38,389 nt of DNA, from sequence record JX509734. One strand, given 5' to 3'. The position numbers and the translations under genes are program-made. Position 1 is the stretch's first letter. Each line of letters begins with the position of its first letter. This document shows, piece after piece, positions 2,470 through 35,893 of the stretch. Below the pieces are notes generated by a model. That model ran no database searches. It was not told where the DNA came from and saw only the letters and a list, made by a program, of their open reading frames with translations. This stretch comes from Enterobacteria phage SfI.

Positions 2470-3710
2470 TGTTCTTTTCGGGATTATTTCAACGAAAAAG
2501 TGACGCACCGGTGACCACGCCAGCAGAGCTGGCGGATGCCATCGGGTTGTCCTACGACACCTATACCGGAAAGCAGATCAGCAGTCAGCGGGCCATGCGA
2601 CTGACGGCGGTTTTTTCCTGCGTCAGAGTGCTGGCAGAGTCGGTCGGGATGTTGCCCTGCAATCTGTATCACCTGAACGGCAGCCTGAAGCAGAGAGCCA
2701 CCGGCGAACGTCTGCATAAACTGATCTCCACGCATCCCAATAGCTATATGACGCCGCAGGAGTTCTGGGAGCTGGTGGTCACCTGTCTGTGCCTGCGGGG
2801 AAATTTTTACGCCTACAAAGTGAAAGCATTTGGCGAAGTGGCTGAACTGCTGCCCGTCGATCCCGGTTGTGTGGTACCGAAGCTTAACAGTAGCTGGGAA
2901 CCGGTTTACCAGGTCACATTTCCGGACGGCTCCACGGATGTACTGAGCCAGGAAGATATCTGGCATGTGCGCACGCTGACGCTGGACGGTCTGGTGGGAC
3001 TGAATCCCATCGCCTATGCCCGCGAGGCAATATCGCTGGCGGCAGCGACCGAAGAGCACGGGGCCAGACTGTTCAGCAATGGCGCGGTGACGTCGGGTGT
3101 GTTGCGTACAGAGCAGACGCTGTCGGATCAGGCTTATGAGCGCCTGAAGAAAGATTTTGAGGAGCGTCACACCGGGCTTGGCAATGCTCACCGCCCGATG
3201 ATCCTTGAGATGGGGCTGGACTGGAAGTCGATGGCGTTGAACGCAGAGGACAGCCAGTTCCTGGAAACCCGCAAGTTTCAGCTTGAAGAAATCTGTCGTC
3301 TGTTCCGGGTGCCATTGCACATGGTGCAGAACACCGATCGCGCCACCTTCAACAATATCGAAGAACTGGGGCTCGGATTTATCAACTATTCACTGGTGCC
3401 GTATCTGACCCGCATCGAACAGCGGATCAACACCGGACTGGTACGAAAAAGTAAGCAGGGCGTTTATTACGCCAAATTTAACGCCGGGGCGTTACTGCGC
3501 GGGGATATGAAGTCCCGTTTTGAAGCCTACGCCACCGGGATTAACTGGGGAATTTACTCTCCCAATGACTGCCGCGACCTGGAAGATATGAATCCGCGTC
3601 CCGGTGGGAATGTCTATCTCACACCGATGAACATGACCACGAAACCCTCCGATGGCAGTAAAGCCGGTAAGCAGAAGGATAACGCCAATGCAGACGAAAC
3701 AACGTCTTGA
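2469..3710 (+). CDS. Portal protein (HK97 family)
   Basis: 413-aa ORF with GTG start preceded by GGAGG; length and position between TerL and prohead protease. Confidence 0.88.
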   Translation: MFFSGLFQRKSDAPVTTPAELADAIGLSYDTYTGKQISSQRAMRLTAVFSCVRVLAESVGMLPCNLYHLNGSLKQRATGERLHKLISTHPNSYMTPQEFWELVVTCLCLRGNFYAYKVKAFGEVAELLPVDPGCVVPKLNSSWEPVYQVTFPDGSTDVLSQEDIWHVRTLTLDGLVGLNPIAYAREAISLAAATEEHGARLFSNGAVTSGVLRTEQTLSDQAYERLKKDFEERHTGLGNAHRPMILEMGLDWKSMALNAEDSQFLETRKFQLEEICRLFRVPLHMVQNTDRATFNNIEELGLGFINYSLVPYLTRIEQRINTGLVRKSKQGVYYAKFNAGALLRGDMKSRFEAYATGINWGIYSPNDCRDLEDMNPRPGGNVYLTPMNMTTKPSDGSKAGKQKDNANADETTS

Positions 3711-4338
3711 TGTACCGCTGAGTCTGAAATCTGTCAGTGACTCCGGTGAGTTTGAAGGGTATGGCTCCGTCTTTGGTGTAAAGGACAGCCACGATGATGT
3801 GGTGATGTCCGGGGCATTTGCTGCTTCCCTGCGGGCGTGGAGTGACAGAAAAGCGTTACCTGCGCTGCTCTGGCAGCACCGCATGGATGAACCCATCGGT
3901 GTTTACACCGAAATGAAGGAAGACGATGTCGGGCTTTACGTCAGGGGACGGTTGCTTATTGATGATGATCCCCTCGCAAAACGCGCACATGCACACATGA
4001 AGGCCGGTTCGTTAACCGGCCTTTCTATTGGGTACGTCCTGAAAGACTGGGAATACGACCGGAGCAAAGAAGCCTTTCTGCTGAAAGAAATCGACCTCTG
4101 GGAAGTCAGCCTGGTGACGTTCCCGTCTAACGACGAGGCGCGGATCAGCGACGTCAAGAACGCACTGGCCCGCGGGGAAATCCCCGAACAGAAAAAAATC
4201 GAAAGAGTCCTGCGTGATGTCGGACTCTCCCGTACCCAGGCCAAAGCATTCATGGCCGGGGGCTATGGCGCACTGTCCCTGCGCGACGCTGAGGATGTGG
4301 GCTCTGCACTGAATGCACTGAAAAATCTGAACTTCTAA
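3652..4338 (+). CDS. Prohead maturation protease (HK97 gp4-like)
   Basis: 228-aa ORF between portal and major capsid; start could be the internal ATG near 3688 because 3652 overlaps the portal end. Confidence 0.8.
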   Translation: MAVKPVSRRITPMQTKQRLDVPLSLKSVSDSGEFEGYGSVFGVKDSHDDVVMSGAFAASLRAWSDRKALPALLWQHRMDEPIGVYTEMKEDDVGLYVRGRLLIDDDPLAKRAHAHMKAGSLTGLSIGYVLKDWEYDRSKEAFLLKEIDLWEVSLVTFPSNDEARISDVKNALARGEIPEQKKIERVLRDVGLSRTQAKAFMAGGYGALSLRDAEDVGSALNALKNLNF

Positions 4339-5810: not shown

Positions 5811-6163
5811 ATGCTTCTGACAATGGAAGAGATTAAAGCCCAACTCCGGCTGGATGAGGATTTCGATGCTGATGACGGCTGGATGAGGATTTCGATGCTG
5901 ATGCCCGCCATCTGCAACTGCTGGCCTGTGCGGCGCAAAAGCGGACGGAAACGTATCTGAACCGGAAGCTCTATGCTCCGGATGAAACCATTCCGGACAG
6001 CGATCCGGACGGGCTGCACCTGCCGGATGATATTCGTCTGGGGATGCTGATGCTTATCAGCCATTTTTACGAAAATCGCTCGTCGGTTACAGACGTTGAG
6101 AAAATGGAGTTGCCAATGAGCTTTAACTGGCTTGTCGGCCCGTACAGGTATTTCCCGCAATGA
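5811..6163 (+). pseudogene. Head-tail connector (gp6-like) gene disrupted by a 29-bp tandem duplication
   Basis: ATG at 5811 with GAGGG RBS. The 28-mer CGGCTGGATGAGGATTTCGATGCTGATG occurs at 5847-5874 and again at 5876-5903 (period 29). As written the frame stops at 5958-5960 (49 aa). Removing one copy gives a continuous gp6-like ORF (MLLTMEEIKAQLRLDEDFDAD...SFNWLVGPYRYFPQ) ending at 6163 with ATGA coupling to the next gene. Confidence 0.6.
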
Positions 6164-6570
6164 AAATTCGTCAGGCGCAGACCAGCGCAACCTACATTCT
6201 GCCGGACCCCGGTGAACTGAATAAACGCGTCCTGATCCGCCAGCGGGTGGATATGCCCGCGGATAACTTTGGCGTGGAGCCTCAATACCCGGTTGCGTTC
6301 CGGACATGGGCGAAGGTTGTCCAGACCAGTGCCACCACCTGGCAGGAAACCGCGCAGACCGGGGACGCCATCACCCATTACATCACCATTCGTTACCGCC
6401 GGGGGATCACCGCTGATTATGAGGTGGTCTGCGGTGACAGTGTGTACCGGGTGAAACGTCAGCGCGATCTGAACGGGGCGCGGCGCTTTCTGCTGCTGGA
6501 GTGTACGGAGCTGGGCGAATGTAGGCAGAGTCACGGAGGCAACAATGACGACTTCCTTTTTGCACGTTGA
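6160..6570 (+). CDS. Head closure / head-tail joining protein
   Basis: 136-aa ORF, ATGA-coupled to the connector frame; position in the head-tail adaptor block. Confidence 0.65.
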   Translation: MKIRQAQTSATYILPDPGELNKRVLIRQRVDMPADNFGVEPQYPVAFRTWAKVVQTSATTWQETAQTGDAITHYITIRYRRGITADYEVVCGDSVYRVKRQRDLNGARRFLLLECTELGECRQSHGGNNDDFLFAR

Positions 6571-7051
6571 TTTTCAGCAGCCCGCGGAGATGCGCTTTAA
6601 CCGCGCCCGTGTCCGGCGGGCGTTTGTCACGATTGGTCAGCGTCATATGCGTGATGCCCGTCGGCTGGTGATGCGCCGTGCGCGGTCGGCACCGGGTGAA
6701 AACCCCGGTTATCAGACCGGACGCCTGGCTCGTTCGATTGGTTACATGGTACCCAGAGCCAGTAAACATCGCCCCGGTTTTATGGCACGTATAGCCCCTA
6801 ACCAGCGTAATGGAGAGGGAAACCGCCGTATCACCGGTGATTTTTATCCGGCTTTTTTGTTCTATGGCGTGAGGCGAGGGGCAAAGCGTCGTCGCAGCCA
6901 TCATCGTGGTGCATCCGGTGGCAGCGGCTGGCGACTGGCTCCACGTAATAACTTCATGGTGGAAACGCTTGAAAAGAACCGCAGCTGGACACGCTATTTT
7001 CTGGCGCGGGAATTGCGTAAATCACTGAAGCCGGAGCGACGACACAGATGA
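6545..7051 (+). CDS. Tail component, HK97 gp10-like (basic C-terminus)
   Basis: 168-aa ORF in the adaptor block; family assignment from position and composition only. Confidence 0.55.
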   Translation: MTTSFLHVDFQQPAEMRFNRARVRRAFVTIGQRHMRDARRLVMRRARSAPGENPGYQTGRLARSIGYMVPRASKHRPGFMARIAPNQRNGEGNRRITGDFYPAFLFYGVRRGAKRRRSHHRGASGGSGWRLAPRNNFMVETLEKNRSWTRYFLARELRKSLKPERRHR

Positions 7052-18226: not shown

Positions 18227-19747
18227 CTATAGGTTAAGTTTTTTGTTAAATACTAATATTACTCTTCCTTCAAAGTTCAAAACTTCGTCAGGCTTACCTA
18301 ATTGTTCTTGAATACCTGCAAGGCAGGATGTCATTTCTTTACATCGTTCAGGTTCGTTAGCTATGGAAACTGCTATAAACTGTCGCTCAGGAGCAGAATT
18401 GAACGCCTCCTTGCTATGCCAAGAAGCCAGTGTCTGTTGTCTCACGCCAGTAAAGTTAATTTTCCCCGAATCAGCATTAAAGAAAACAGGAGTTATCTGT
18501 ATGTCCCCACCAGATAACCAATTTACAGTCATTGACAAATCCCAAAAAGAGCCGTACCCATAATGGAGATTATTTTTTTTTAAAAAATCAATGTATGATT
18601 TAACAATCTTCTCCTGATCGTGTAATGGTGAAGCATTATTTGTGTAAGATTTAATTGAACTGATCGAAAATAAAAATGCGATTAGATAAAATAATATCTT
18701 TGCTTTTGTTGATGTACCGATACAGCACAATATCAGTGCGAAACAGGTAACATTCATAAAGAAACGCATGCTAATATAATCAGGGGATTTATAGCTCAGT
18801 ATGAATGATGAGACAATACCTGCGATAGATAATAATGAAAATAACACAATATAAATACGGTATGTGTTTTTTTTATTGTCCGATAAAACAAACCACGCAG
18901 ATGTAATAATGGCAATGAACCAAATGACAAATGAGGCGTAAGATGTTGCGTTATTGTCGACAACTAATAAATTAAGACTTTTTCCTATTAACAGAATGCA
19001 CCATTTTGCATTTAAAATCATATCATTGAGTGATACAATTTCAAATTGGTGGGGAGGTATGTTAAGTAGATTTTGCAATACATTGGAAAGAGAGATTAAA
19101 CATGCAAATAGTATTAATGCAGTATGCTTAAATAATTTTTTATCCCATACAGAGAATAAAAAGTAAGATATTAATAGTGGAATAAAAAATGCAGCTGTAA
19201 ACCACGGATCGGATACGCTGGAAAATAATGCTGTCAAACTTAAGAGGAGAGTGATAAATATATTTTTATACTGTATGTTGAAAACAGATATAAGCAAGCA
19301 TAAAAAGCCGAAAGCGTTTGTTGAATTATGAGAAAAAGGATGTGATACAAAACCATAAGTGTATGAAAAATATGGTATTAGAGATAGAAGTATAATAGAA
19401 AATAAAGCAGGGGTAAACCCGAATGCCTTACGTAGCGTTAACATCGCTGCTATTACTATAGCAATAGAGAAAACTGCAGTTGATAATCTTAATGCTACTA
19501 AGCCATCATCACCTAACAGCATATAAAATAAAAAGTTAATTGGGTAAACGGTGAAATACCAATTATCCACGGTTGGTTTCCAGTCGTGGATTGATGATAT
19601 ACCATTCTCTAAAATATGCCTCCATACAATTGGGCTGTTAGCAACATCCGGTTCAACTGGAAAGTATCTGGTAGTCAACCAAGTTATTAGGAGTGCTGAT
19701 AAAGCCAATAATATTTTTAATGCTGATTGTTTAATACATATGCTCAT
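18227..19747 (-). CDS. GtrC-family serotype-specific O-antigen glucosyltransferase (polytopic membrane protein)
   Basis: 506-aa very hydrophobic, AT-rich ORF directly downstream of gtrB in the same operon; gtrC genes are the variable, serotype-defining member of gtr cassettes. Confidence 0.72.
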   Translation of the reverse strand: MSICIKQSALKILLALSALLITWLTTRYFPVEPDVANSPIVWRHILENGISSIHDWKPTVDNWYFTVYPINFLFYMLLGDDGLVALRLSTAVFSIAIVIAAMLTLRKAFGFTPALFSIILLSLIPYFSYTYGFVSHPFSHNSTNAFGFLCLLISVFNIQYKNIFITLLLSLTALFSSVSDPWFTAAFFIPLLISYFLFSVWDKKLFKHTALILFACLISLSNVLQNLLNIPPHQFEIVSLNDMILNAKWCILLIGKSLNLLVVDNNATSYASFVIWFIAIITSAWFVLSDNKKNTYRIYIVLFSLLSIAGIVSSFILSYKSPDYISMRFFMNVTCFALILCCIGTSTKAKILFYLIAFLFSISSIKSYTNNASPLHDQEKIVKSYIDFLKKNNLHYGYGSFWDLSMTVNWLSGGDIQITPVFFNADSGKINFTGVRQQTLASWHSKEAFNSAPERQFIAVSIANEPERCKEMTSCLAGIQEQLGKPDEVLNFEGRVILVFNKKLNL

Positions 19748-19749
19748 GG

Positions 19750-20670
19750 TTATTTTCTACCTTTCTTCAAAATATACTTAGGTCTTGATTTTGTTTCTAA
19801 GTAAATTCTACCTATATATTCACCGAGAACACCAATCCCGATCAGTTGCACTCCACCCAAGAAAAGTATTGATACAAGCAGGGAGGGATACCCGCGTACT
19901 GGGTTACCAAAGACAAGGGTGTCTATAATCATCCATGCACCATATAAAAATGAAATGCTTGCAACAAACAAGCCTATATAAGTCCATACGCGAAGAGGAA
20001 AGGTTGAAAAACTTGTGATACCTTCCAGTGCCAGATTCCATAATTTCCAGCCATTAAATTTTGAGATGCCAGCAACACGCTCTGCGCGTACATATTCAAC
20101 GACATCCGTCTGACCACCCACCCAGCTCAGTATGCCTTTCATGAAAAGATTGCGCTCAGGCAACAGTTTAATGTTCTCCACAACCTCACGAGACATGAGT
20201 CGAAAATCTCCGACATTTTCCTCGATCTTTGGGGTGCTTATTTTGTTGTGTAATTTATAGAACCACTCAGCTGTCTTACGTTTCAGTCGTCCATCAGTTG
20301 AGCGGTCTGAACGTTTAGCAAGCACCATGTCAGCACCTGCCTGCCACTTTTCAATAAGATGAGGGATAACCTCAATTGGGTCTTGCAGGTCGACATCAAT
20401 AGGAATTACAGCATCGCCGCTTGCATGGTCTAACCCTGCAAATAAGGCTGGTTCTTTACCAAAGTTGCGTGTAAATGACAGCGGAACAACTAGCGGGTCT
20501 GAAACAGCCAGCGCGTTAATAATTGACTCTGTGGCATCTTTACTTCCGTCATTTATGAATACAATTTCTACTTCATATGGCTTCAACTCTTGGAATTCAC
20601 GTACCGTTTTATAGAAAACAGGTATCGCTTCTTCTTCATTGAAGACAGGAACGACAAGAGATATTTTCAT
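19750..20670 (-). CDS. gtrB: Bactoprenol glucosyltransferase GtrB (GT2 family)
   Basis: 306-aa ORF ([17 protein letters not shown]...) with C-terminal TM segments; coupled to gtrA upstream. Confidence 0.88.
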
Positions 20671-21029
20671 TTCGCATCCCTAAAGACAATGAACTTTGAA
20701 TAGACGAAACCGCACACCAGACTGATGGCGGAGAAGGTGATAAGAGTGACTATTGGAGGAAGTGAGCATTTATCAGCTGCCCAACCAACAATCACACTCA
20801 ATATTCCCATAAATCCCACGTATAACATGTAGCGCATCGCTGTAGTCGATGCTTTGAATGTGAATCTTGCATTCGCGAAGAAGCTAAAGCTCACAGCCAC
20901 TACGAAACCTGTGAAGTTTGCCAGAGCCTGACTGGTATGTGCGGCATAGATACATACACCAAAAACCACCCAGTGTATAAGTGTGTTCAGCACACCTATA
21001 GATGTGTACTTTACAAATAACTTTAACAT
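20667..21029 (-). CDS. gtrA: GtrA flippase for undecaprenyl-phosphate glucose
   Basis: 120-aa four-TM protein; first gene of the minus-strand gtr operon. Confidence 0.85.
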
Positions 21030-21290: not shown

Positions 21291-22454
21291 TTACACATCA
21301 TTAGTACCTTCCTTATTTTTTGACTGGGACAAATTTGGGACCGATGGGTTCAGGATCGAGTCTATTTGCCGTGCGTGTTCGGTAAGGTGATTAGGTGCAA
21401 GGTGAGCATATCGACGAACCATTTCGATAGACTCCCAGCCTCCCATTTCCTGTAACACTGACAATGGGACTCCGGCTTGAACCAGCCAACTTGCCCAGGT
21501 GTGTCTCAAGTCGTGAAATCTGAAATCATCAATACCAGCCCGTCTCAGCGCCGCTTTCCAGGCTGTGTTTGCGTCATACCGCATCTTCCTTACTGTTGGC
21601 GCTTTCGTTCCGTCTGGTTTGGTACAGCTTTCCTTGTATACAAATACCCAACGGTGATGATTCCCGATTTGTTTTTTCAATACGCGACATGCAGTATCAT
21701 TCAGCGCAACGCCAATTGCGCGGTTTGATTTACTCTCTTCCGGGTTTATCCATGCCACCCGGCGCTGCATGTCTATTTGTTGCCATTCAAGGTTGATGAT
21801 GTTCGAGCGTCTTAAGCCTGTTGCCAGTGCAAATTCAACAACAGACTTTAATGGCTCCGGACATTCATCAATCAGCCTTTGTGCTTCATGAGGCTCCAGC
21901 CAGCGGATACGTTTATTCTTCGGTTGAGGCACTTTAATAATTGGTGCCTTATCCAGCATTTTCCATTCACGCTCTGCGGCTCTTAGCAGGGCCTTTATAA
22001 ATGAAAGATGCGTAGCCTTCGTTGCAACGGACGCTGGTTTTGGCGTGTATTCTGGAACAGGTTTCCCTTTTTTTCTGCATGCTTCTGCCCTGAGTTTCCA
22101 GTTTTCCTCATGACGCCGGTTCGTCATTTTCTGCATTGCTGAATAAATTTTTGATTCAGTAATGTCTTTTAGTTGCATTCCTGCGAAATGTTGAAGCCAG
22201 AATCCGATCCGGCTTTTGTCATCGTCCAGTGATTTTTTATGTGCTTTCTCTTCGAGCCACCTGACACACGCTTCCTCAAACGTCATATCAGGTATTTCAC
22301 CAAGTTTGCTGACCCGCCATGCTTCAGCCTTTAGCTTGTCATGGAGCTCTGTCGCCTGCCTTTTGTCCTTTGTTCCAAGAGACTGTTTAAATCTTTTACC
22401 GTTCGGCAATGTGAAACTGGCGTACCATATTTCACTTCTGCGGAAGAGTGACAT
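21291..22454 (-). CDS. int: Tyrosine integrase (P22 Int-like)
   Basis: 387-aa ORF ([47 protein letters not shown]...) with C-terminal [11 protein letters not shown]...RYAHL catalytic signature; adjacent to attP. Confidence 0.9.
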
Positions 22455-22681
22455 TTTCTTTCCTCTGTTATGCCATCACCCGCGCTCACCTTGATAGTAT
22501 GCAGCGGAGACTGAAGCGCCGCAATGCAGGCTTGTCGCGTTGTGAGGTAAGGAGATTTTGGTTTAGTGGGGTCTTTGCGTGTTGCCTGTAGGCGGCCTGT
22601 TCGTATCCAGTTGGTGGCGGTTGGTCTGGATATCTTAAGAAACTGACAGGCCTCATCGAGTGTGAGGCTGTATGTTTCCAT
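22331..22681 (-). CDS. xis: Excisionase (P22 Xis-like)
   Basis: Track ORF 22331..22711; GAGG RBS favours the ATG at 22681 ([33 protein letters not shown]...); overlaps the int 5-prime end. Confidence 0.78.
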
Positions 22682-22931
22682 GGTTACCTCTGCTTTTTGA
22701 ACGCATGTCACGTAACTTCTTAATGTGTTCTGCCGTTTCGATCTCTTCTGCTATCCGATCTGCATCAGCTTTATTCACAGGTTCAAAGTCATGATTAAAG
22801 CGGAACATGCTGGCGATACATGTTCTGCCTTTTCGGATGTAGTGAACTTTGTTGTGGGTAGAACGCAGGATTTTGCAGGGAGTGCCGTGGTGGTCGACGT
22901 ACCAGGTGTTAGGCAAAATGATTCTGAACAT
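22653..22931 (-). CDS. Hypothetical protein
   Basis: 92-aa ORF with GAGGTG RBS; lies in the pL-distal accessory region. Confidence 0.5.
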   Translation of the reverse strand: MFRIILPNTWYVDHHGTPCKILRSTHNKVHYIRKGRTCIASMFRFNHDFEPVNKADADRIAEEIETAEHIKKLRDMRSKSRGNHGNIQPHTR

Positions 22932-22978
22932 TTTTACACCTCAGTTGGACGATGTTGAAATTTGCTGCCTTGAGGCCA

Positions 22979-23197
22979 TCACAGTCCCCATTGTTTGTTC
23001 TTAAGTTCGATCTCCTCCTGGCAACTTGCACAAGTCCGACAACCCTGAACAGCCAGGCGTCTTCGCTCATCTATCGGATCGCCACACTCACAACAATGAG
23101 TTGCGGATACAGTCTGGTAGTTCAGACGACGCATTTTTATTGCTGTATTGCGCTGTAATTCTTCGATTTCTGATGCTGAATCAATGATGTCTGCCAT
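22979..23197 (-). CDS. TraR/DksA-family C4 zinc-finger protein
   Basis: 72-aa ORF with CxxC-x17-CxxC (CECG...CRTC) and the size typical of phage TraR homologues. Confidence 0.68.
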   Translation of the reverse strand: MADIIDSASEIEELQRNTAIKMRRLNYQTVSATHCCECGDPIDERRRLAVQGCRTCASCQEEIELKNKQWGL

Positions 23198-23295
23198 CTT
23201 TCATTAATCCCTGAATTGTTGGTTAATACGCTTGAGGGTGAATGCGAATAATAAAAAAGGAGCCTGTAGCTCCCTGATGATTTTGCTTTTCATGT

Positions 23296-23511
23296 TCACC
23301 GTTCCTTAAAGACGCCGTTTAACATACCGATTGCCAGACTTAAGTGAGTCGGTGTGAATCCCATCAGCGTTACCGTTTCGCGGTGCTTCTTTAGTACGCT
23401 ACGGCAAATGTCATTGACGTTTTTATCCGGAAACTGCTGTCTGGCTTTTTTGATTTCATAATTAGCCTGACGGGCAATGCTGCGAAGGGCGTTATTATGT
23501 TCTATTGTCAT
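23296..23511 (-). CDS. Hypothetical protein (71 aa)
   Basis: Track ORF 23296..23649; RBS GAGG placed 9 nt upstream of the ATG at 23511, which sits 8 nt downstream of the preceding gene stop. Confidence 0.45.
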   Translation of the reverse strand: MTIEHNNALRSIARQANYEIKKARQQFPDKNVNDICRSVLKKHRETVTLMGFTPTHLSLAIGMLNGVFKER

Positions 23512-23518
23512 ATTGGCC

Positions 23519-24271
23519 TCACACTTCGAATGCCAGTTGAGGGGTAAAGACGTCCCGTTCAGCGTTGTAATTAAGTGAACTGGCACTGTTGAATGATTCA
23601 ATGCGTTCCACAAGAACTTGCGTACGGGTTTCTTTACTTGCGGGAGCATATGGCGAACCTACCCAGGATTTGTCGATGCCTATATTTCTTGCGACGTTCG
23701 TGCTGTCTGCAGACGAAAGCGGTACATGAGTAAAAATGTCTTTATTTAACATCCGTAACCCATGAATCTTGGTGATTGGGTAGCCGTACTGATCTACAAC
23801 ATGACGTATAAGATCGCGTAGTTTAGCCCGACACGCTCTCGGTCGTTTTGCATCGTATTCCCCCATCGAGCCGATGCAGACGCGGGGAAACTCATGGCAC
23901 AGACGAATAAATCGCTCATCTGGTTCGTTCATGTGCCACACCGGAGCACCAATAAATTTACCGTGAGGCCATGCCGCAATCAGGGCGTCATTCTCTTCAC
24001 TGGTTCCGCCGATAACATCCGGGATAACCGCGAATGAGAAACGAGGGTGATTGCCCCAGCGTTCAACAAATCTGTAATATTCATTCCAGTCTACGGCCTT
24101 GTTTTTTGTCCAGAATGTGAATGCACCATTATCAAGAGCAAATGATTGGGTGACTTCGGAAGCCAGATCAATCTGAGCTGGATTAGCAAAACTGATGAAT
24201 GCGTGTCTGCCTTTCCAGGCTTTCAACGCACAGGTATCGGGAGTTATTGGACCACCGTGAAAATGAATCAT
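23519..24271 (-). CDS. TGT-fold protein, candidate DpdA-like DNA-guanine transglycosylase (7-deazaguanine DNA modification)
   Basis: 250-aa ORF with GGGAGAG RBS. By eye it carries LDNGAF (compare DSGGFQ of tRNA-guanine transglycosylase), IGSMG (compare LMGVG) and SADSTNVARNIG (compare DCVMPTRNARNG) in the right order, and lacks the C-terminal zinc site, as phage DpdA proteins do. The gene is solid; the functional call is inference. Confidence 0.45.
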   Translation of the reverse strand: MIHFHGGPITPDTCALKAWKGRHAFISFANPAQIDLASEVTQSFALDNGAFTFWTKNKAVDWNEYYRFVERWGNHPRFSFAVIPDVIGGTSEENDALIAAWPHGKFIGAPVWHMNEPDERFIRLCHEFPRVCIGSMGEYDAKRPRACRAKLRDLIRHVVDQYGYPITKIHGLRMLNKDIFTHVPLSSADSTNVARNIGIDKSWVGSPYAPASKETRTQVLVERIESFNSASSLNYNAERDVFTPQLAFEV

Positions 24272-24432
24272 ACACTCTCCCGTTTATTATTTATCTCCTC
24301 AGCCAGCCGCTGGGCTTTCAGCGGATTTCGGATAACAGAAAGGCCGGGAAATACCCAGCCTCGCTTTGTAACGGAGTAGACGAAAGTGATCGCGCCTACC
24401 CGGATATTATCGTGAGGATGCTTCATCGCCAT
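24268..24432 (-). CDS. Lambda orf60a-like small protein
   Basis: 54-aa ORF ([54 protein letters not shown]) overlapping the exo stop and ATGA-coupled to the downstream gene; under 60 aa so absent from the track. Confidence 0.5.
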
Positions 24433-25103
24433 TGCTCCCCAAATACAAAACCAATTTCAGCCAGTGCCTCGTCCATTTTTTCGATGAACTCCGGCACCAT
24501 CTCGTCAAAACTCGCCATGTAATTTTCATCCCGCTCAACCACGACATAATGCAGGCCTTCACGCTTCATTCGTGGGTCATAGTTGGCAAAGTACCAGGCA
24601 TCTTTTCGCGTTACCCACATGCTGTACTGCACCTGGGCCATGTAAGCCGACTTTATGGCCTCGAAACCACCGAGCCGGAATTTCATGAAATCCCGGGAGG
24701 TAAACGGGCATTTCAGTTCAAGGCCGTTGCCGTCACTGCATAAACCATCGGGAGAGCAGGCGGTGCGCATATTTTCGTCGCGATAGATGATCGGGGATTC
24801 AGTAACATTCACGCCGGAAGTGAATTCAAACAGGGTTCTGGCGTCGTTCTCGTACTGTTTTCCCCAGGCCAGCGCCTTAGCATTAACTTCCGGAGCCACA
24901 CCGGTGCAAACCTCAGCCAGCAGGGTGTGGAAGTAGGACATTTTCATGTCAGGCCACTTCTTTCCTGAGCGGGGCTTTGCTATCACGTTGTGAACTTCTG
25001 AAGCGGTGATGACGCCGAGCCGTAATTTGTGCCATGCATCATCCCCCTGTTCGACAGCTCTCACGTCGATCCCGGTACGCTGCAGGATAATGTCCGGTGT
25101 CAT
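24423..25103 (-). CDS. exo: Lambda-type 5-prime to 3-prime exonuclease Exo (Red-alpha)
   Basis: 226-aa ORF ([53 protein letters not shown]...) matching lambda Exo as remembered; coupled to bet. Confidence 0.9.
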
Positions 25104-25885
25104 GCTGCCACCTTCTGCTCAGTGGCTTTCTGTTTCAGGAATCCAAGAGCTTTCACTGCTTCGGCCTGTGTCAGTTCTGACGATGCGCGAATGTCGCGGC
25201 GAAATATCTGGGAACAGAGCGGCAATAAGTCGTCATCCCATGTTTTATCCAGGGCGATCAGCAGAGTGTTAATCTCCTGCATGGTTTCATCGTTAACCGG
25301 AGTGATGTCGCGTTCCGGCTGACGTTCTGCAGTGTATGCAGTATTTTCGACAATGCGCTCGGCTTCATCCTTGTCATAGATACCAGCAAATCCGAAGGCC
25401 AGACGGGCACACTGAATCATGGCTTTATGCCGTAACATCCGTTTGGGATGCGACTGCCACGGTCCGGTGATTTCTCTGCCTTCGCGGGTTTTGAATGGTT
25501 CGCGGCGGCATTCATCCATCCACTCGGTAACGCAGATCGGATGATTACGGTCCTTGCGGTAAATCCGGCATGTGCAGGATTCATTGTCCTGCTCAAAGTC
25601 CATGCCATCAAACTGCTGGTTTTCATTGATGATACGGGACCAGCCATCAACGCCCACCACCGGAACGATGCCGTTCTGCTTGTCAGGGAAGGCGTAAATT
25701 TCTTTCGTCCACGGATTAAGGCCGTACTGGTTGGCGACGATCAACAATGCGATGAACTGCGCATCGCTGGCATCACCTTTAAATGCCGTCTGGCGAAGAG
25801 TGGTGATCAGTTCCTGTGGGTCGACAGAATCCATGCCGACACGTTCAGCCAGCTTCCCAGCCAGCGTTGCGAGTGCTGTACTCAT
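25100..25885 (-). CDS. bet: Bet single-strand annealing protein (Red-beta)
   Basis: 261-aa ORF ([66 protein letters not shown]...) matching lambda Bet as remembered. Confidence 0.9.
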
Positions 25886-29782: not shown

Positions 29783-30499
<717 letters not shown>

Positions 30500-30506
30500 T
30501 TAAATC

Positions 30507-30572
30507 TATCACCGCAAGGGATAAATATCTAACACCGTGCGTGTTGACTATTTTACCTCTGGCGGTGATAAT
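30507..30572. promoter_or_regulatory. oR3-oR2-oR1 operators with divergent pRM / pR promoters
   Basis: TATCACCGCAAGGGATA (30507-30523), TAACACCGTGCGTGTTG (30530-30546), TACCTCTGGCGGTGATA (30554-30570); pR -35 TTGACT 30544-30549 and -10 GATAAT 30567-30572; cro RBS AGGAGG follows. Confidence 0.88.
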
Positions 30573-30587
30573 GGTTGCATGTACTAA

Positions 30588-30797
<210 letters not shown>

Positions 30798-30804
30798 ATA
30801 ACCC

Positions 30805-30836
30805 CGCTCTTACACATTCCAGCCCTGAAAAAGGGC
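30805..30836 (+). promoter_or_regulatory. nutR site (boxA CGCTCTTA plus boxB GCCCTGAAAAAGGGC)
   Basis: CGCTCTTACACATTCCAGCCCTGAAAAAGGGC between cro and cII. Confidence 0.75.
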
Positions 30837-30915
30837 ATCAAATTAAACCACACCTATGGTGTATGCATTTATTTGCATACATTCAATCAATTGTTATCTA
30901 AGGAAATACTTACAT

Positions 30916-33199: not shown

Positions 33200-33640
33200 A
33201 TGAAAAAACTAACCTTTGAAATTCGATCTCCAGCACATCAGCAAAACGCTATTCACGCAGTACAGCAAATTCTTCCAGACCCAACCAAACCAATCGTAGT
33301 AACCATTCAGGAACGCAACCGCAGCTTAGACCAAAACCGAAAGCTTTGGGCTTGCCTTGGTGACGTCTCTCGTCAGGTTGAATGGCATGGTCGCTGGCTG
33401 GATGCAGAAAGCTGGAAGTGTGTGTTTACCGCAGCATTAAAGCAGCAGGACGTTGTTCCTAACCTTGCCGGGAATGGCTTTGTGGTAATAGGCCAGTCAA
33501 CCAGCAGGATGCGTGTAAGCGAATTTGCGGAGCTATTAGAGCTTATACAGGCATTCGGTACAGAGCGTGGCGTTAAGTGGTCAGACGAAGCGCGACTAGC
33601 TCTCGAATGGAAAGCGCGATGGGGAGATCGGGCTGCATGA
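33200..33640 (+). CDS. ninB: NinB (Orf family recombination mediator)
   Basis: Track ORF 33182..33640; start taken at MKKLTFEIRSPAHQQNAIHAVQQILPDPTKPIVVTIQERNRSLDQNRKLWA... Confidence 0.8.
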   Translation: MKKLTFEIRSPAHQQNAIHAVQQILPDPTKPIVVTIQERNRSLDQNRKLWACLGDVSRQVEWHGRWLDAESWKCVFTAALKQQDVVPNLAGNGFVVIGQSTSRMRVSEFAELLELIQAFGTERGVKWSDEARLALEWKARWGDRAA

Positions 33641-34164
33641 CTATCAAATCAAATACGCCAGCACACGACAAGGACTGCTGGCAAACGCCGCTTTGGCTTT
33701 TTGATGCACTGGATATTGAGTTTGGATTCTGGCTGGATTCGGCAGCGAGCGACAAAAATGCTCTGTGCGCTCACTGGTTAACTGAGGCCGACGACGCGCT
33801 AAATTCTGAGTGGATAAGCCACGGTGCAATCTGGAATAACCCACCGTACAGCAATATCAGGCCGTGGGTGGAAAAAGCCGCTGAGCAGTGCATACAACAG
33901 CGACAGACGGTAGTGATGCTTGTGCCAGAGGATATGTCTGTCGGATGGTTCAGCAAGGCTCTGGAGAGTATTGACGAAGTTCGCATCATCACTGATGGAC
34001 GGATTAATTTTATCGAACCATCGACAGGGCTGGAGAAGAAGGGAAACAGCAAAGGTTCCATGCTGCTGATTTGGCGACCGTTCATCAATCCTCGACGGAT
34101 GTTTACTACCGTATCCAAAGCGGCATTGATGGCGATCGGGCAGGGCGTCAGGAGGGCAGCATGA
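33637..34164 (+). CDS. Phage Dam-like DNA N6-adenine methyltransferase (NPPY motif)
   Basis: Track ORF 33577..34164; ATG at 33637 is ATGA-coupled to the ninB stop; the 175-aa product has the WNNPPYS motif typical of N6-adenine methyltransferases; occupies the position of lambda ninC. Confidence 0.68.
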
Positions 34165-35737: not shown

Positions 35738-35812
35738 GGGTCAGTCGTATAAAGGTCATTACGGAAGGCTGTTAACCTTCTTATCGTGGTTCGAGTCCAC
35801 GCTGTCCCGCCA
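35738..35812 (+). tRNA. tRNA, anticodon GTT by hand fold (Asn-like); slightly imperfect stems
   Basis: 75 nt with CCA end; perfect anticodon stem GAAGG/CCTTC with loop CTGTTAA, T-arm CGTGG-TTCGAGT-CCACG, one T-T mismatch in the acceptor stem and a 3-bp D-stem. Confidence 0.5.
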
Positions 35813-35817
35813 AATAT

Positions 35818-35893
35818 GCTGGTTTAGCTCCAATGGTAGAGCGGTCGCCTTGTAAGCGAATGGGTAGCGGTTCAAGTCCGTTAACCAGCACCA
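35818..35893 (+). tRNA. tRNA-Thr (anticodon TGT) by hand fold
   Basis: 76 nt; perfect 7-bp acceptor stem (GCTGGTT/AACCAGC), D-stem GCTC/GAGC, anticodon loop CTTGTAA, T-loop TTCAAGT, 3-prime ACCA. Confidence 0.72.

Follow-up and report, generated by a model that had tools for sequence, protein, structure and literature searches.

Enterobacteria phage SfI is a lambdoid, serotype-converting phage of Shigella flexneri whose 38,389-bp genome (record JX509734, G+C 0.50) was analysed as a whole and is referred to here as the window. Between exo and xis, on the minus strand, it carries the open reading frames (ORFs) orf30 to orf35, which make up the exo–xis accessory block of this phage and form a mosaic of lambda and non-lambda parts. 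The coordinates equal those in the ORF table of Sun et al. 2013 (PMC3636060), where each of orf30 to orf35 was marked 'Unknown'. One non-lambda gene, orf34, encodes a protein of 250 amino acids (aa), a homologue of the DNA guanine transglycosylase DpdA.

Gene content of the exo–xis block

A first-pass annotation of the window had reported five ORFs from exo to xis. All five lie on the minus strand where it had placed them, each with a strong family match, and a sixth ORF of 31 aa has to be added to its list. The family matches, together with annotated orthologues across many phages and genomes, indicate genuine genes rather than chance ORFs, and the gene and family identifications across the block can be given with high confidence. 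The features are as follows, with names from the published table (PMC3636060) in brackets and its coordinates where they differ.

24423–25103, minus strand: exo, lambda exonuclease; YqaJ domain E 5e-30, 98% aa identity to lambda Exo; upstream boundary of the block
24268–24432, minus strand: orf60a (orf35, 54 aa); Pfam DUF1317 E 2e-33
23519–24271, minus strand: singleton DpdA homologue, 250 aa (orf34); PHROG 887 'queuine tRNA-ribosyltransferase' E 4e-99
23494–24268: non-lambda cassette, 775 bp, a single gene in the orf63 slot, flanked by lambda-identical DNA
23296–23511, minus strand: orf61, 71 aa (core of orf33, published as 23296–23649 in a 117-aa form); PHROG 303 E 1.5e-33, profile positions 23–93 of 101
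23204–23299, minus strand: 31-aa ORF, MNMKSKIIRELQAPFLLFAFTLKRINQQFRD, between orf61 and orf73 (orf32, published as 23204–23293, 29 aa)
23257–23275, minus strand: terminator-like hairpin with U-run, between orf61 and orf73, inside the 31-aa ORF
22979–23197, minus strand: orf73 (orf31, 72 aa); Pfam zf-dskA_traR E 3e-9, PHROG 54 E 4e-26
22653–22931, minus strand: DUF4222 protein, 92 aa (orf30); Pfam DUF4222 E 2e-19, PHROG 285 E 8e-38
22331–22681, minus strand: xis (116 aa, P22/SfV type); HTH_17; downstream boundary of the block

Along the minus strand the order is N … cIII, kil, gam, bet, exo, the block, xis and int. N, rexB, rexA and cI lie upstream of the block on the same strand. The last three belong to lambda families; in the SfI table, identity to lambda is 100% for cI, RexA and RexB, while N is listed as Sf6-type with 92% identity to lambda N (PMC3636060). 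A pattern scan of the minus strand from 22000 to 25200, which included a search for an internal promoter for the block, found no promoter-like site. Both this result and the pL-N-cIII-kil-gam-bet-exo order agree with the earlier proposal that the block is oriented downstream of pL. In lambda, pL drives early transcription of the exo–xis genes, which are also translated (PMC8614690). In SfI, the block would belong to the delayed-early part of the leftward pL operon, where N-antiterminated RNA polymerase reads it after exo.

Reading of the sequence showed that exo and orf60a overlap, that orf60a and the 250-aa gene overlap through ATGA, that a 7-nucleotide (nt) gap with GAGG separates the 250-aa gene from the 71-aa ORF, and that the 92-aa DUF4222 ORF and xis overlap by 29 nt. 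The tight or overlapping junctions that had been claimed throughout are found at these four positions, but not between orf61 and orf73 (98 nt, with the hairpin and the 31-aa ORF) or between orf73 and the DUF4222 gene (47 nt, with GAGGTG). The hairpin at 23275–23257 has a 7-bp GC-rich stem followed by U6 (-14.4 kcal/mol, z -2.4; pattern scan and RNA fold) and sits within a lambda-identical segment.

Orf60a shares 51 of its 54 residues with the lambda protein (94%) and differs only in the last three, where the non-lambda cassette begins. The second ATG, at 24426, is probably its true start and overlaps the exo stop via ATGA. This is the start used in lambda and by the Prokaryotic Genome Annotation Pipeline (PGAP), whose form is 52 aa long.

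The 71-aa ORF is Orf61, a small basic protein with a predicted homeodomain-like fold; its deletion phenotype and this prediction have been published (PMC6213356, PMC8614690). A ribosome-binding site, GAGG, lies 8 nt upstream of its ATG. Residues 1–24 are 71% identical to the C-terminal part of the annotated lambda orf61, and residues 21–71 match, at 98% identity, a lambda ORF in a frame other than that of the annotated gene. An N-terminal match in the annotated frame followed by a 51-residue C-terminal match in another frame indicates that the lambda reference orf61 is frameshifted. The split gene spans 3013–3325 (minus strand) of the lambda locus used for comparison (L004), and Orf61 is intact in SfI and in other phages; the lambda protein has been described as apparently truncated (PMC8614690). 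The published 117-aa form of orf33, starting at the ATG at 23649, was rejected as a real gene. Its first 46 codons overlap the 3' end of the DpdA gene in another frame, the 71-aa start with its GAGG is where both the PHROG 303 match and the lambda homology set in, and the 216-nt form is the one annotated by PGAP and in other phage records.

The 31-aa protein is identical to that of a lambda ORF at 2921–3016 (minus strand) of the same lambda locus. Ribosome profiling found a 31-aa peptide in the matching lambda region (PMC8614690), and the SfI product is probably this peptide.

Orf73 is a TraR/DksA-type protein of about 70 aa. It matches the C4 zinc finger PF01258 with 37.3 bits against a cut-off of 24.9, scores 53.9 bits against NCBIfam TIGR02419, below the cut-off of 59.7, and has 87% aa identity to lambda Orf73, which is itself an unannotated lambda ORF. 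Lambda Orf73 binds RNA polymerase in the secondary channel as TraR does, inhibits rRNA and ribosomal-protein promoters, slows the growth of the host and raises phage yield and burst size (PMC9239242). The 87% identity suggests that SfI Orf73 may likewise be an RNA-polymerase-binding regulator.

The 92-aa protein is covered by DUF4222 over the full profile (positions 1–53 of 53; 69.6 bits against a cut-off of 27). The gene is non-lambda and belongs with the P22/SfV-type xis–int module, and phages ev243 and PhiR30_1 have the DUF4222–xis–int arrangement at 93% identity (blastn). The xis region has 87% nt identity to that of the P22-like phage BTP1 (blastn), and the SfI table gives Xis as 94% identical to SfV Xis (PMC3636060). 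The one studied member of DUF4222 is RgdR (ECs1581), a prophage-encoded regulator of motility and of type III secretion from the enterocyte effacement locus (LEE) in enterohaemorrhagic Escherichia coli (PMC3378721). RgdR and the SfI protein are both small, basic and prophage-encoded, with 24% identity and a pairwise E of 4e-6. However, the R20-G21-D22 motif that RgdR needs for LEE activation aligns with P7-N8-T9 of the SfI protein and is not conserved, and RgdR lies before the primase gene in a P4-like element, whereas the SfI gene lies beside xis. For the 92-aa protein, with its weak similarity to RgdR and no RGD motif, 'small basic prophage regulator' is therefore no more than a lead.

The earlier calls of an orf60a-like ORF (DUF1317 and 94% identity to lambda), a TraR-like ORF (zf-dskA_traR and 87% identity to lambda Orf73) and a P22-type xis (P22/SfV type, by the BTP1 similarity and the SfI table) are borne out. 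The 71-aa and 92-aa ORFs, to which no function had been assigned, can now be placed: the profile searches that had been recommended matched both to named families, the former to PHROG 303 as Orf61, with its published deletion phenotype, and the latter to DUF4222, the family of RgdR (PMC3378721). The first-pass annotation had also regarded the lack of any deletion phenotype as an outcome that would overturn its proposal. This has been partly tested on the orthologues in lambda and Phi24B, where deletions do give phenotypes: in both phages, the lysis–lysogeny decision and prophage induction are shifted when orf60a or orf61 is lost (PMC6213356). In the laboratory, phages can do without the exo–xis genes (PMC6213356).

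Lambda and non-lambda segments and the orf60a|orf61 slot

Two stretches of the block are lambda DNA by blastn. Positions 23002–23493 have 95% nt identity to lambda and hold most of orf73, the 31-aa ORF and most of orf61; the SfI paper lists the same interval against lambda 30,418–30,910 at 95% (PMC3636060). Positions 24269–24600 have 96% nt identity and hold orf60a and part of exo. Three of the five ORFs (orf60a, orf61 and orf73) and the 31-aa ORF have lambda counterparts at 87–100% aa identity.

The non-lambda DNA comes as two replacements. The first is the 775-bp segment 23494–24268, which stands in place of lambda orf63. The second lies to the left of about 23002, where DUF4222, xis and int are found instead of ea22, ea8.5, lambdap35, xis and int. 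By tblastn and blastn, lambda orf63, ea22 and ea8.5 are without a match in the block, although orf63 and ea22 are counted in the 'conserved block' of the lambda exo–xis region (PMC8614690).

The boundaries of the first replacement define an exchange slot between orf60a and orf61. By blastn its junctions lie at 23493/23494, which is 18 nt inside orf61, and at 24268/24269. At the right junction, every variant has …AATAATAAACGGGnGnTGT in common, and the ATG of the slot gene is at the same nucleotide in all of them, whether the gene encodes Orf63, a Dam-like protein or DpdA. The slot is occupied by orf63 (DUF1382) in lambda and ev243, by a gene for a Dam-like N6-adenine methylase in PhiR30_1 and by the 250-aa gene in SfI and PhiR5_1. 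Among 5,426 complete E. coli genomes, orf63 was found in the slot in 2,891, the Dam-like methylase in 244 and DpdA in 95–100, all of the last being at least 99% identical. The corresponding counts are 41, 3 and 31 among 80 IMG/VR loci that were selected by similarity to orf61, five of which have no orf60a in the locus. The earlier description of a variable accessory locus holds. Such variation belongs to ordinary lambdoid mosaicism, though it is worth noting that, of the three occupants, two would be DNA-modification enzymes encoded by a single gene.

The DpdA homologue and its proposed action

By its sequence, the orf34 product is a homologue of the DNA guanine transglycosylases within the tRNA-guanine transglycosylase (TGT) superfamily, lacking the Zn subdomain. 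Hutinet et al. 2019 list SfI DpdA (YP_009147480) among the phages that encode DpdA only (Supplementary Data 1), and their group 3 of gamma-proteobacterial 'singleton' DpdA phages comprises SfI, HK106, BTP1, SPN3UB, SEN1, SE131, 7-11 and PEAT2. When phage records were searched by tblastn, the relatives of orf34 were those of PhiR5_1 (99.6%), Klebsiella phages (84–86%), Salmonella BTP1 and SPN3UB (67.6%), MED16 and SEN1 (39%), HK106 (37%), and 7-11 and SE131 (36%). BTP1, SPN3UB, MED16, HK106 and 7-11 are all in the 2019 list of DpdA-only phages. At E <= 1e-3, 6,182 proteins in a set of 5.8 billion belong to the family, almost all of them named 'hypothetical'; among clusters at 50% identity, 1,579 representatives fall within it at the same threshold.

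The link to an enzyme of demonstrated activity comes from phage 9g. In hhalign, a shallow profile of the family matched the experimentally active 9g DpdA with 93% probability, and a 62-sequence profile did so with 98.3% probability (E 1.2e-14, 152 columns). In the reverse direction, tblastn of 9g DpdA against the SfI genome gave orf34 as its sole match (E 6e-6). Three motifs are paired between the SfI and 9g proteins, namely LDNGAF with LDSGAF, K-I-H-G-L with K-V-H-G-F, and S-A-D-S with S-C-D-S. These relatives, together with PHROG 887 and the DpdA-only phages, sustain the first-pass call of a DpdA-like protein.

D47, H170, D189 and S190 are invariant in the 62 sequences, down to 31% identity, and at least 90% of them also have D85, H113 and G134. 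In the motif L-D47-N-G-A-F51, A50 is conserved in at least 90% of the same sequences and F51 is invariant in closer alignments. By motif, D47 and F51 probably correspond to D95 and F99 of bacterial DpdA, a general acid/base Asp with an aromatic residue four positions further on, and D189 would be the nucleophile, equivalent to D256 of bacterial DpdA (PMC10164549) and D280 of TGT. The orf34 product has a predicted TGT-type (beta/alpha)8 barrel fold. A first AlphaFold2 model, built on 20 sequences of at least 63% identity, reached a mean predicted local distance difference test score of 58, gave only generic triose-phosphate isomerase (TIM)-barrel matches and was discarded; the retained model was built on the 62-sequence alignment reaching down to 31% identity. 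A Foldseek search of the latter against the PDB was non-discriminating, and profiles of the family (A1, A2 and A3) matched Pfam, NCBIfam, PADLOC and the PDB only through spurious low-complexity or coiled-coil hits.

Neither the 250-aa clade nor 9g DpdA itself is covered by a Pfam or NCBIfam model. PGAP calls the 250-aa homologue a 'hypothetical protein' in all E. coli genomes inspected, e.g., NZ_CP139337.1 (positions 6070–6822 of locus L005).

Exchange of a DNA guanine for a 7-deazaguanine has been shown for 9g, CAjan DpdA, DpdA2 of nt-1/VH7D and bacterial DpdA. No homologue of FolE, QueD, Gat-QueC or QueE of 9g was found in the whole 38,389-bp genome (tblastn, best E 0.13). As the phage has no genes for 7-cyano-7-deazaguanine (preQ0), the enzyme would use host-made preQ0 or a close derivative. 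There is precedent for this, since in E. coli the 9g DpdA on its own puts preQ0 made by the host into plasmid DNA as 2'-deoxy-7-cyano-7-deazaguanosine (dPreQ0) (PMC6884629). Phage 7-11 and Pantoea phage MED16, which have a singleton DpdA, carry dADG (2'-deoxy-7-amido-7-deazaguanosine) at 0.02% and 0.13% of G, respectively.

In the proposed scheme, translation of orf34 is coupled to that of orf60a, and the gene is expressed from the pL transcript under N antitermination. Its product would be a TGT-fold base-exchange enzyme in which, judged by motif register, D47 serves as the general acid/base and D189 as the nucleophile. Fed by the preQ0 pool of the Shigella or E. coli host, it would act on double-stranded phage DNA once this has been replicated and swap guanines there at low density, probably within a specific motif. 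The mark on progeny DNA may then blunt some restriction or defence systems, the same role as that of the Dam-like methylase in the identical slot of sister phages. The explanation for the block as a whole, a mosaic exo–xis block read from pL in which DpdA marks DNA, is regarded as probable. For the narrower claim that orf34 specifically modifies DNA, the balance tips only modestly in favour.

Several points weigh against this proposal. Among the singleton-DpdA phages listed, chemical analysis covers 7-11 and MED16, both lytic, 36–39% identical to the SfI protein, and neither of them lambdoid. The low-level dADG of MED16 gave no protection against the restriction enzymes tried, and phage Orion, which has DpdA only, is without DNA modification. 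Sequence searches with the 250-aa protein gave no match in Pfam, NCBIfam, PADLOC or the PDB, and hhalign against the single sequence of E. coli Tgt gave nothing. The equivalences of D47 with D95 and of D189 with D256 are based on motifs and not on superposition. In alignments A1 and A3, the 61 residues after D189 contain no conserved Cys or His for a structural Zn site; such a site, which TGTs and bacterial DpdA conserve, is thus absent, as it is in Cap10. Finally, Cap10, which acts on a protein-linked deazaguanine, is the best structural neighbour.

In the leading alternative, orf34 encodes an active TGT-like protein that does not modify phage DNA. In the manner of Cap10, it might bind a 7-deazaguanine or transfer it on a protein or RNA, or it might interfere with host defence or translation by acting on host tRNA or DNA or by sequestering preQ0. 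Besides the missing Zn site, Cap10 has an Asp/His catalytic pair, and the four residues invariant in the SfI family include H170 and D189. The orf34 product is near-neutral (pI, isoelectric point, 7.15), and modification in the tested singleton-DpdA phages is very low and, in MED16, not protective. However, the cassette has one gene, with no Cap9/QueC-like or CD-NTase (cGAS/DncV-like nucleotidyltransferase) partner, the profile homology is to phage DpdA1, a proven DNA modifier, rather than to Cap10, dADG is present in the DNA of two singleton-DpdA phages, and the other occupant of the same slot is a DNA methylase. This alternative is judged improbable. If true, a Cap10-like action on something other than DNA would be a new phage use of deazaguanine chemistry.

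Alternatively, the cassette could be a passenger 'moron', with a decaying or inert DpdA-like gene carried along by lambdoid mosaic recombination. DpdA is the rarest occupant of the slot (about 1.8% of complete E. coli genomes), the exo–xis genes can be dispensed with in the laboratory, and Orion shows a singleton DpdA without modification. A decaying gene would nevertheless be hard to reconcile with a reading frame that is intact in all matches and at least 99% identical in all 100 E. coli copies, with the size of the family, with predicted catalytic residues that are invariant down to 31% identity, and with the preserved ATGA coupling to orf60a and in-register start. This reading is considered very improbable.

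Least credible of all is the first-pass reading of a 'non-lambda gene set' that is foreign to lambda throughout and replaced the lambda ea/orf region as one block: the absence of ea22, ea8.5 and lambdap35, the P22/SfV-type xis–int and the lack of lambda counterparts for DUF4222 and DpdA speak for it, but orf60a, orf61, orf73 and the 31-aa ORF are lambda genes inside DNA that is 95–96% identical to lambda, nucleotide and protein alignments rule the reading out for the three named genes, and the actual swaps, limited to orf63 and to ea22/ea8.5/lambdap35, are separate replacements with junctions of their own.

A broader and more speculative reading can be built on the DNA-marking proposal. The orf60a|orf61 junction might be a plug-in socket for single-gene DNA-modification modules (Dam-like methylase or DpdA) that are swapped in register with orf63 to suit the restriction or defence systems of the host, and the Zn-less DpdA clade of temperate enterobacterial phages a sequence-specific epigenetic writer fed by host queuosine precursors, maybe inserting 7-amido-7-deazaguanine (ADG) directly, or else a Cap10-like enzyme acting on something other than DNA. 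We consider this combination unlikely.

All of this is already covered by publications or curated families: SfI with its ORF table dates from 2013, work on the exo–xis genes from 2008–2024, lambda Orf73 as a TraR homologue from 2022 and SfI DpdA from the 2019 catalogue. With a published genome, an exo–xis region that has been well studied in lambda by the Wegrzyn and Donaldson groups and a DpdA catalogued in 2019, the analysis carries little weight as a discovery. Its practical value lies in annotation correction, for SfI orf30–orf35 ('Unknown' in 2013) and for the homologues that PGAP calls 'hypothetical' in about 100 complete E. coli genomes. In addition, SfI- or lambda-type phages that carry orf63, Dam or DpdA in the slot and are otherwise alike would make an isogenic system for studying a DpdA without a dedicated preQ0 pathway.

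Elsewhere in the window, orf56 in the nin region (33607–34164, plus strand) is called a 'DNA methylase' in the SfI paper, with similarity to HK97 gp62 and VT2-Sakai; SfI may thus carry two orphan DNA-modifying enzymes, orf34 and orf56. An O-antigen glucosylation cassette (18227–21029, minus strand) adjoins attP and the P22/SfV-type int. Its gtrA and gtrB are about 99% identical to those of SfII and SfV, and the 506-aa serotype-specific gtr product has no Pfam match and no match in the phage collection. Tandem genes for tRNA-Asn(GUU) and tRNA-Thr(UGU) lie downstream of Q at 35738 and 35818 (35738–35893, plus strand), the same positions as in PMC3636060.

Comparison with known systems

The exo–xis region of lambda resembles that of SfI in its position from exo to xis and in its strand downstream of pL. 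It differs in that lambda orf63 is replaced in SfI by the gene for the 250-aa DpdA, and ea22, ea8.5 and lambdap35 by one DUF4222 gene, with xis–int of the P22/SfV type. In addition, orf61 is intact in SfI, whereas the lambda reference copy is frameshifted or truncated (PMC8614690).

Among enzymes of the TGT fold, Cap10 of type IV CBASS (cyclic-oligonucleotide-based antiphage signalling system; PDB 9NTN) has 10% identity to the SfI protein and works with the QueC-like Cap9 on the N-terminus of the CD-NTase, partners that SfI does not have. The bacterial DpdA of Salmonella Montevideo (PDB 7UI4), from the Dpd restriction-modification island, is 413 aa long, has the Ins8 insertion and a Zn site, requires the DpdB ATPase and is encoded in a cluster of more than 10 genes; the SfI enzyme has none of these features. 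DpdA1 of 9g and CAjan, a preQ0 DNA transglycosylase, has a homologous catalytic core and the LD(N/S)GAF, HG and S(A/C)DS motifs in common with SfI. Identity between the 9g and SfI proteins is about 20%. The 9g enzyme has 317 aa, is encoded beside folE-queD-queE-gat-queC and modifies 25–30% of G, whereas the SfI enzyme has 250 aa and stands alone.

SfI itself is listed among the singleton-DpdA phages. Their proteins have 36–68% aa identity to that of SfI, which, as noted, is without preQ0 genes. Phages 7-11 and MED16, with their low-level dADG, are lytic, unlike SfI. In HK106 (3495–4295 of locus L009) and BTP1 (3501–4256 of locus L010), which are unrelated lambdoid or P22-like phages, the singleton DpdA gene likewise lies in the early-left pL 'ea' region, between the recombination genes and xis.

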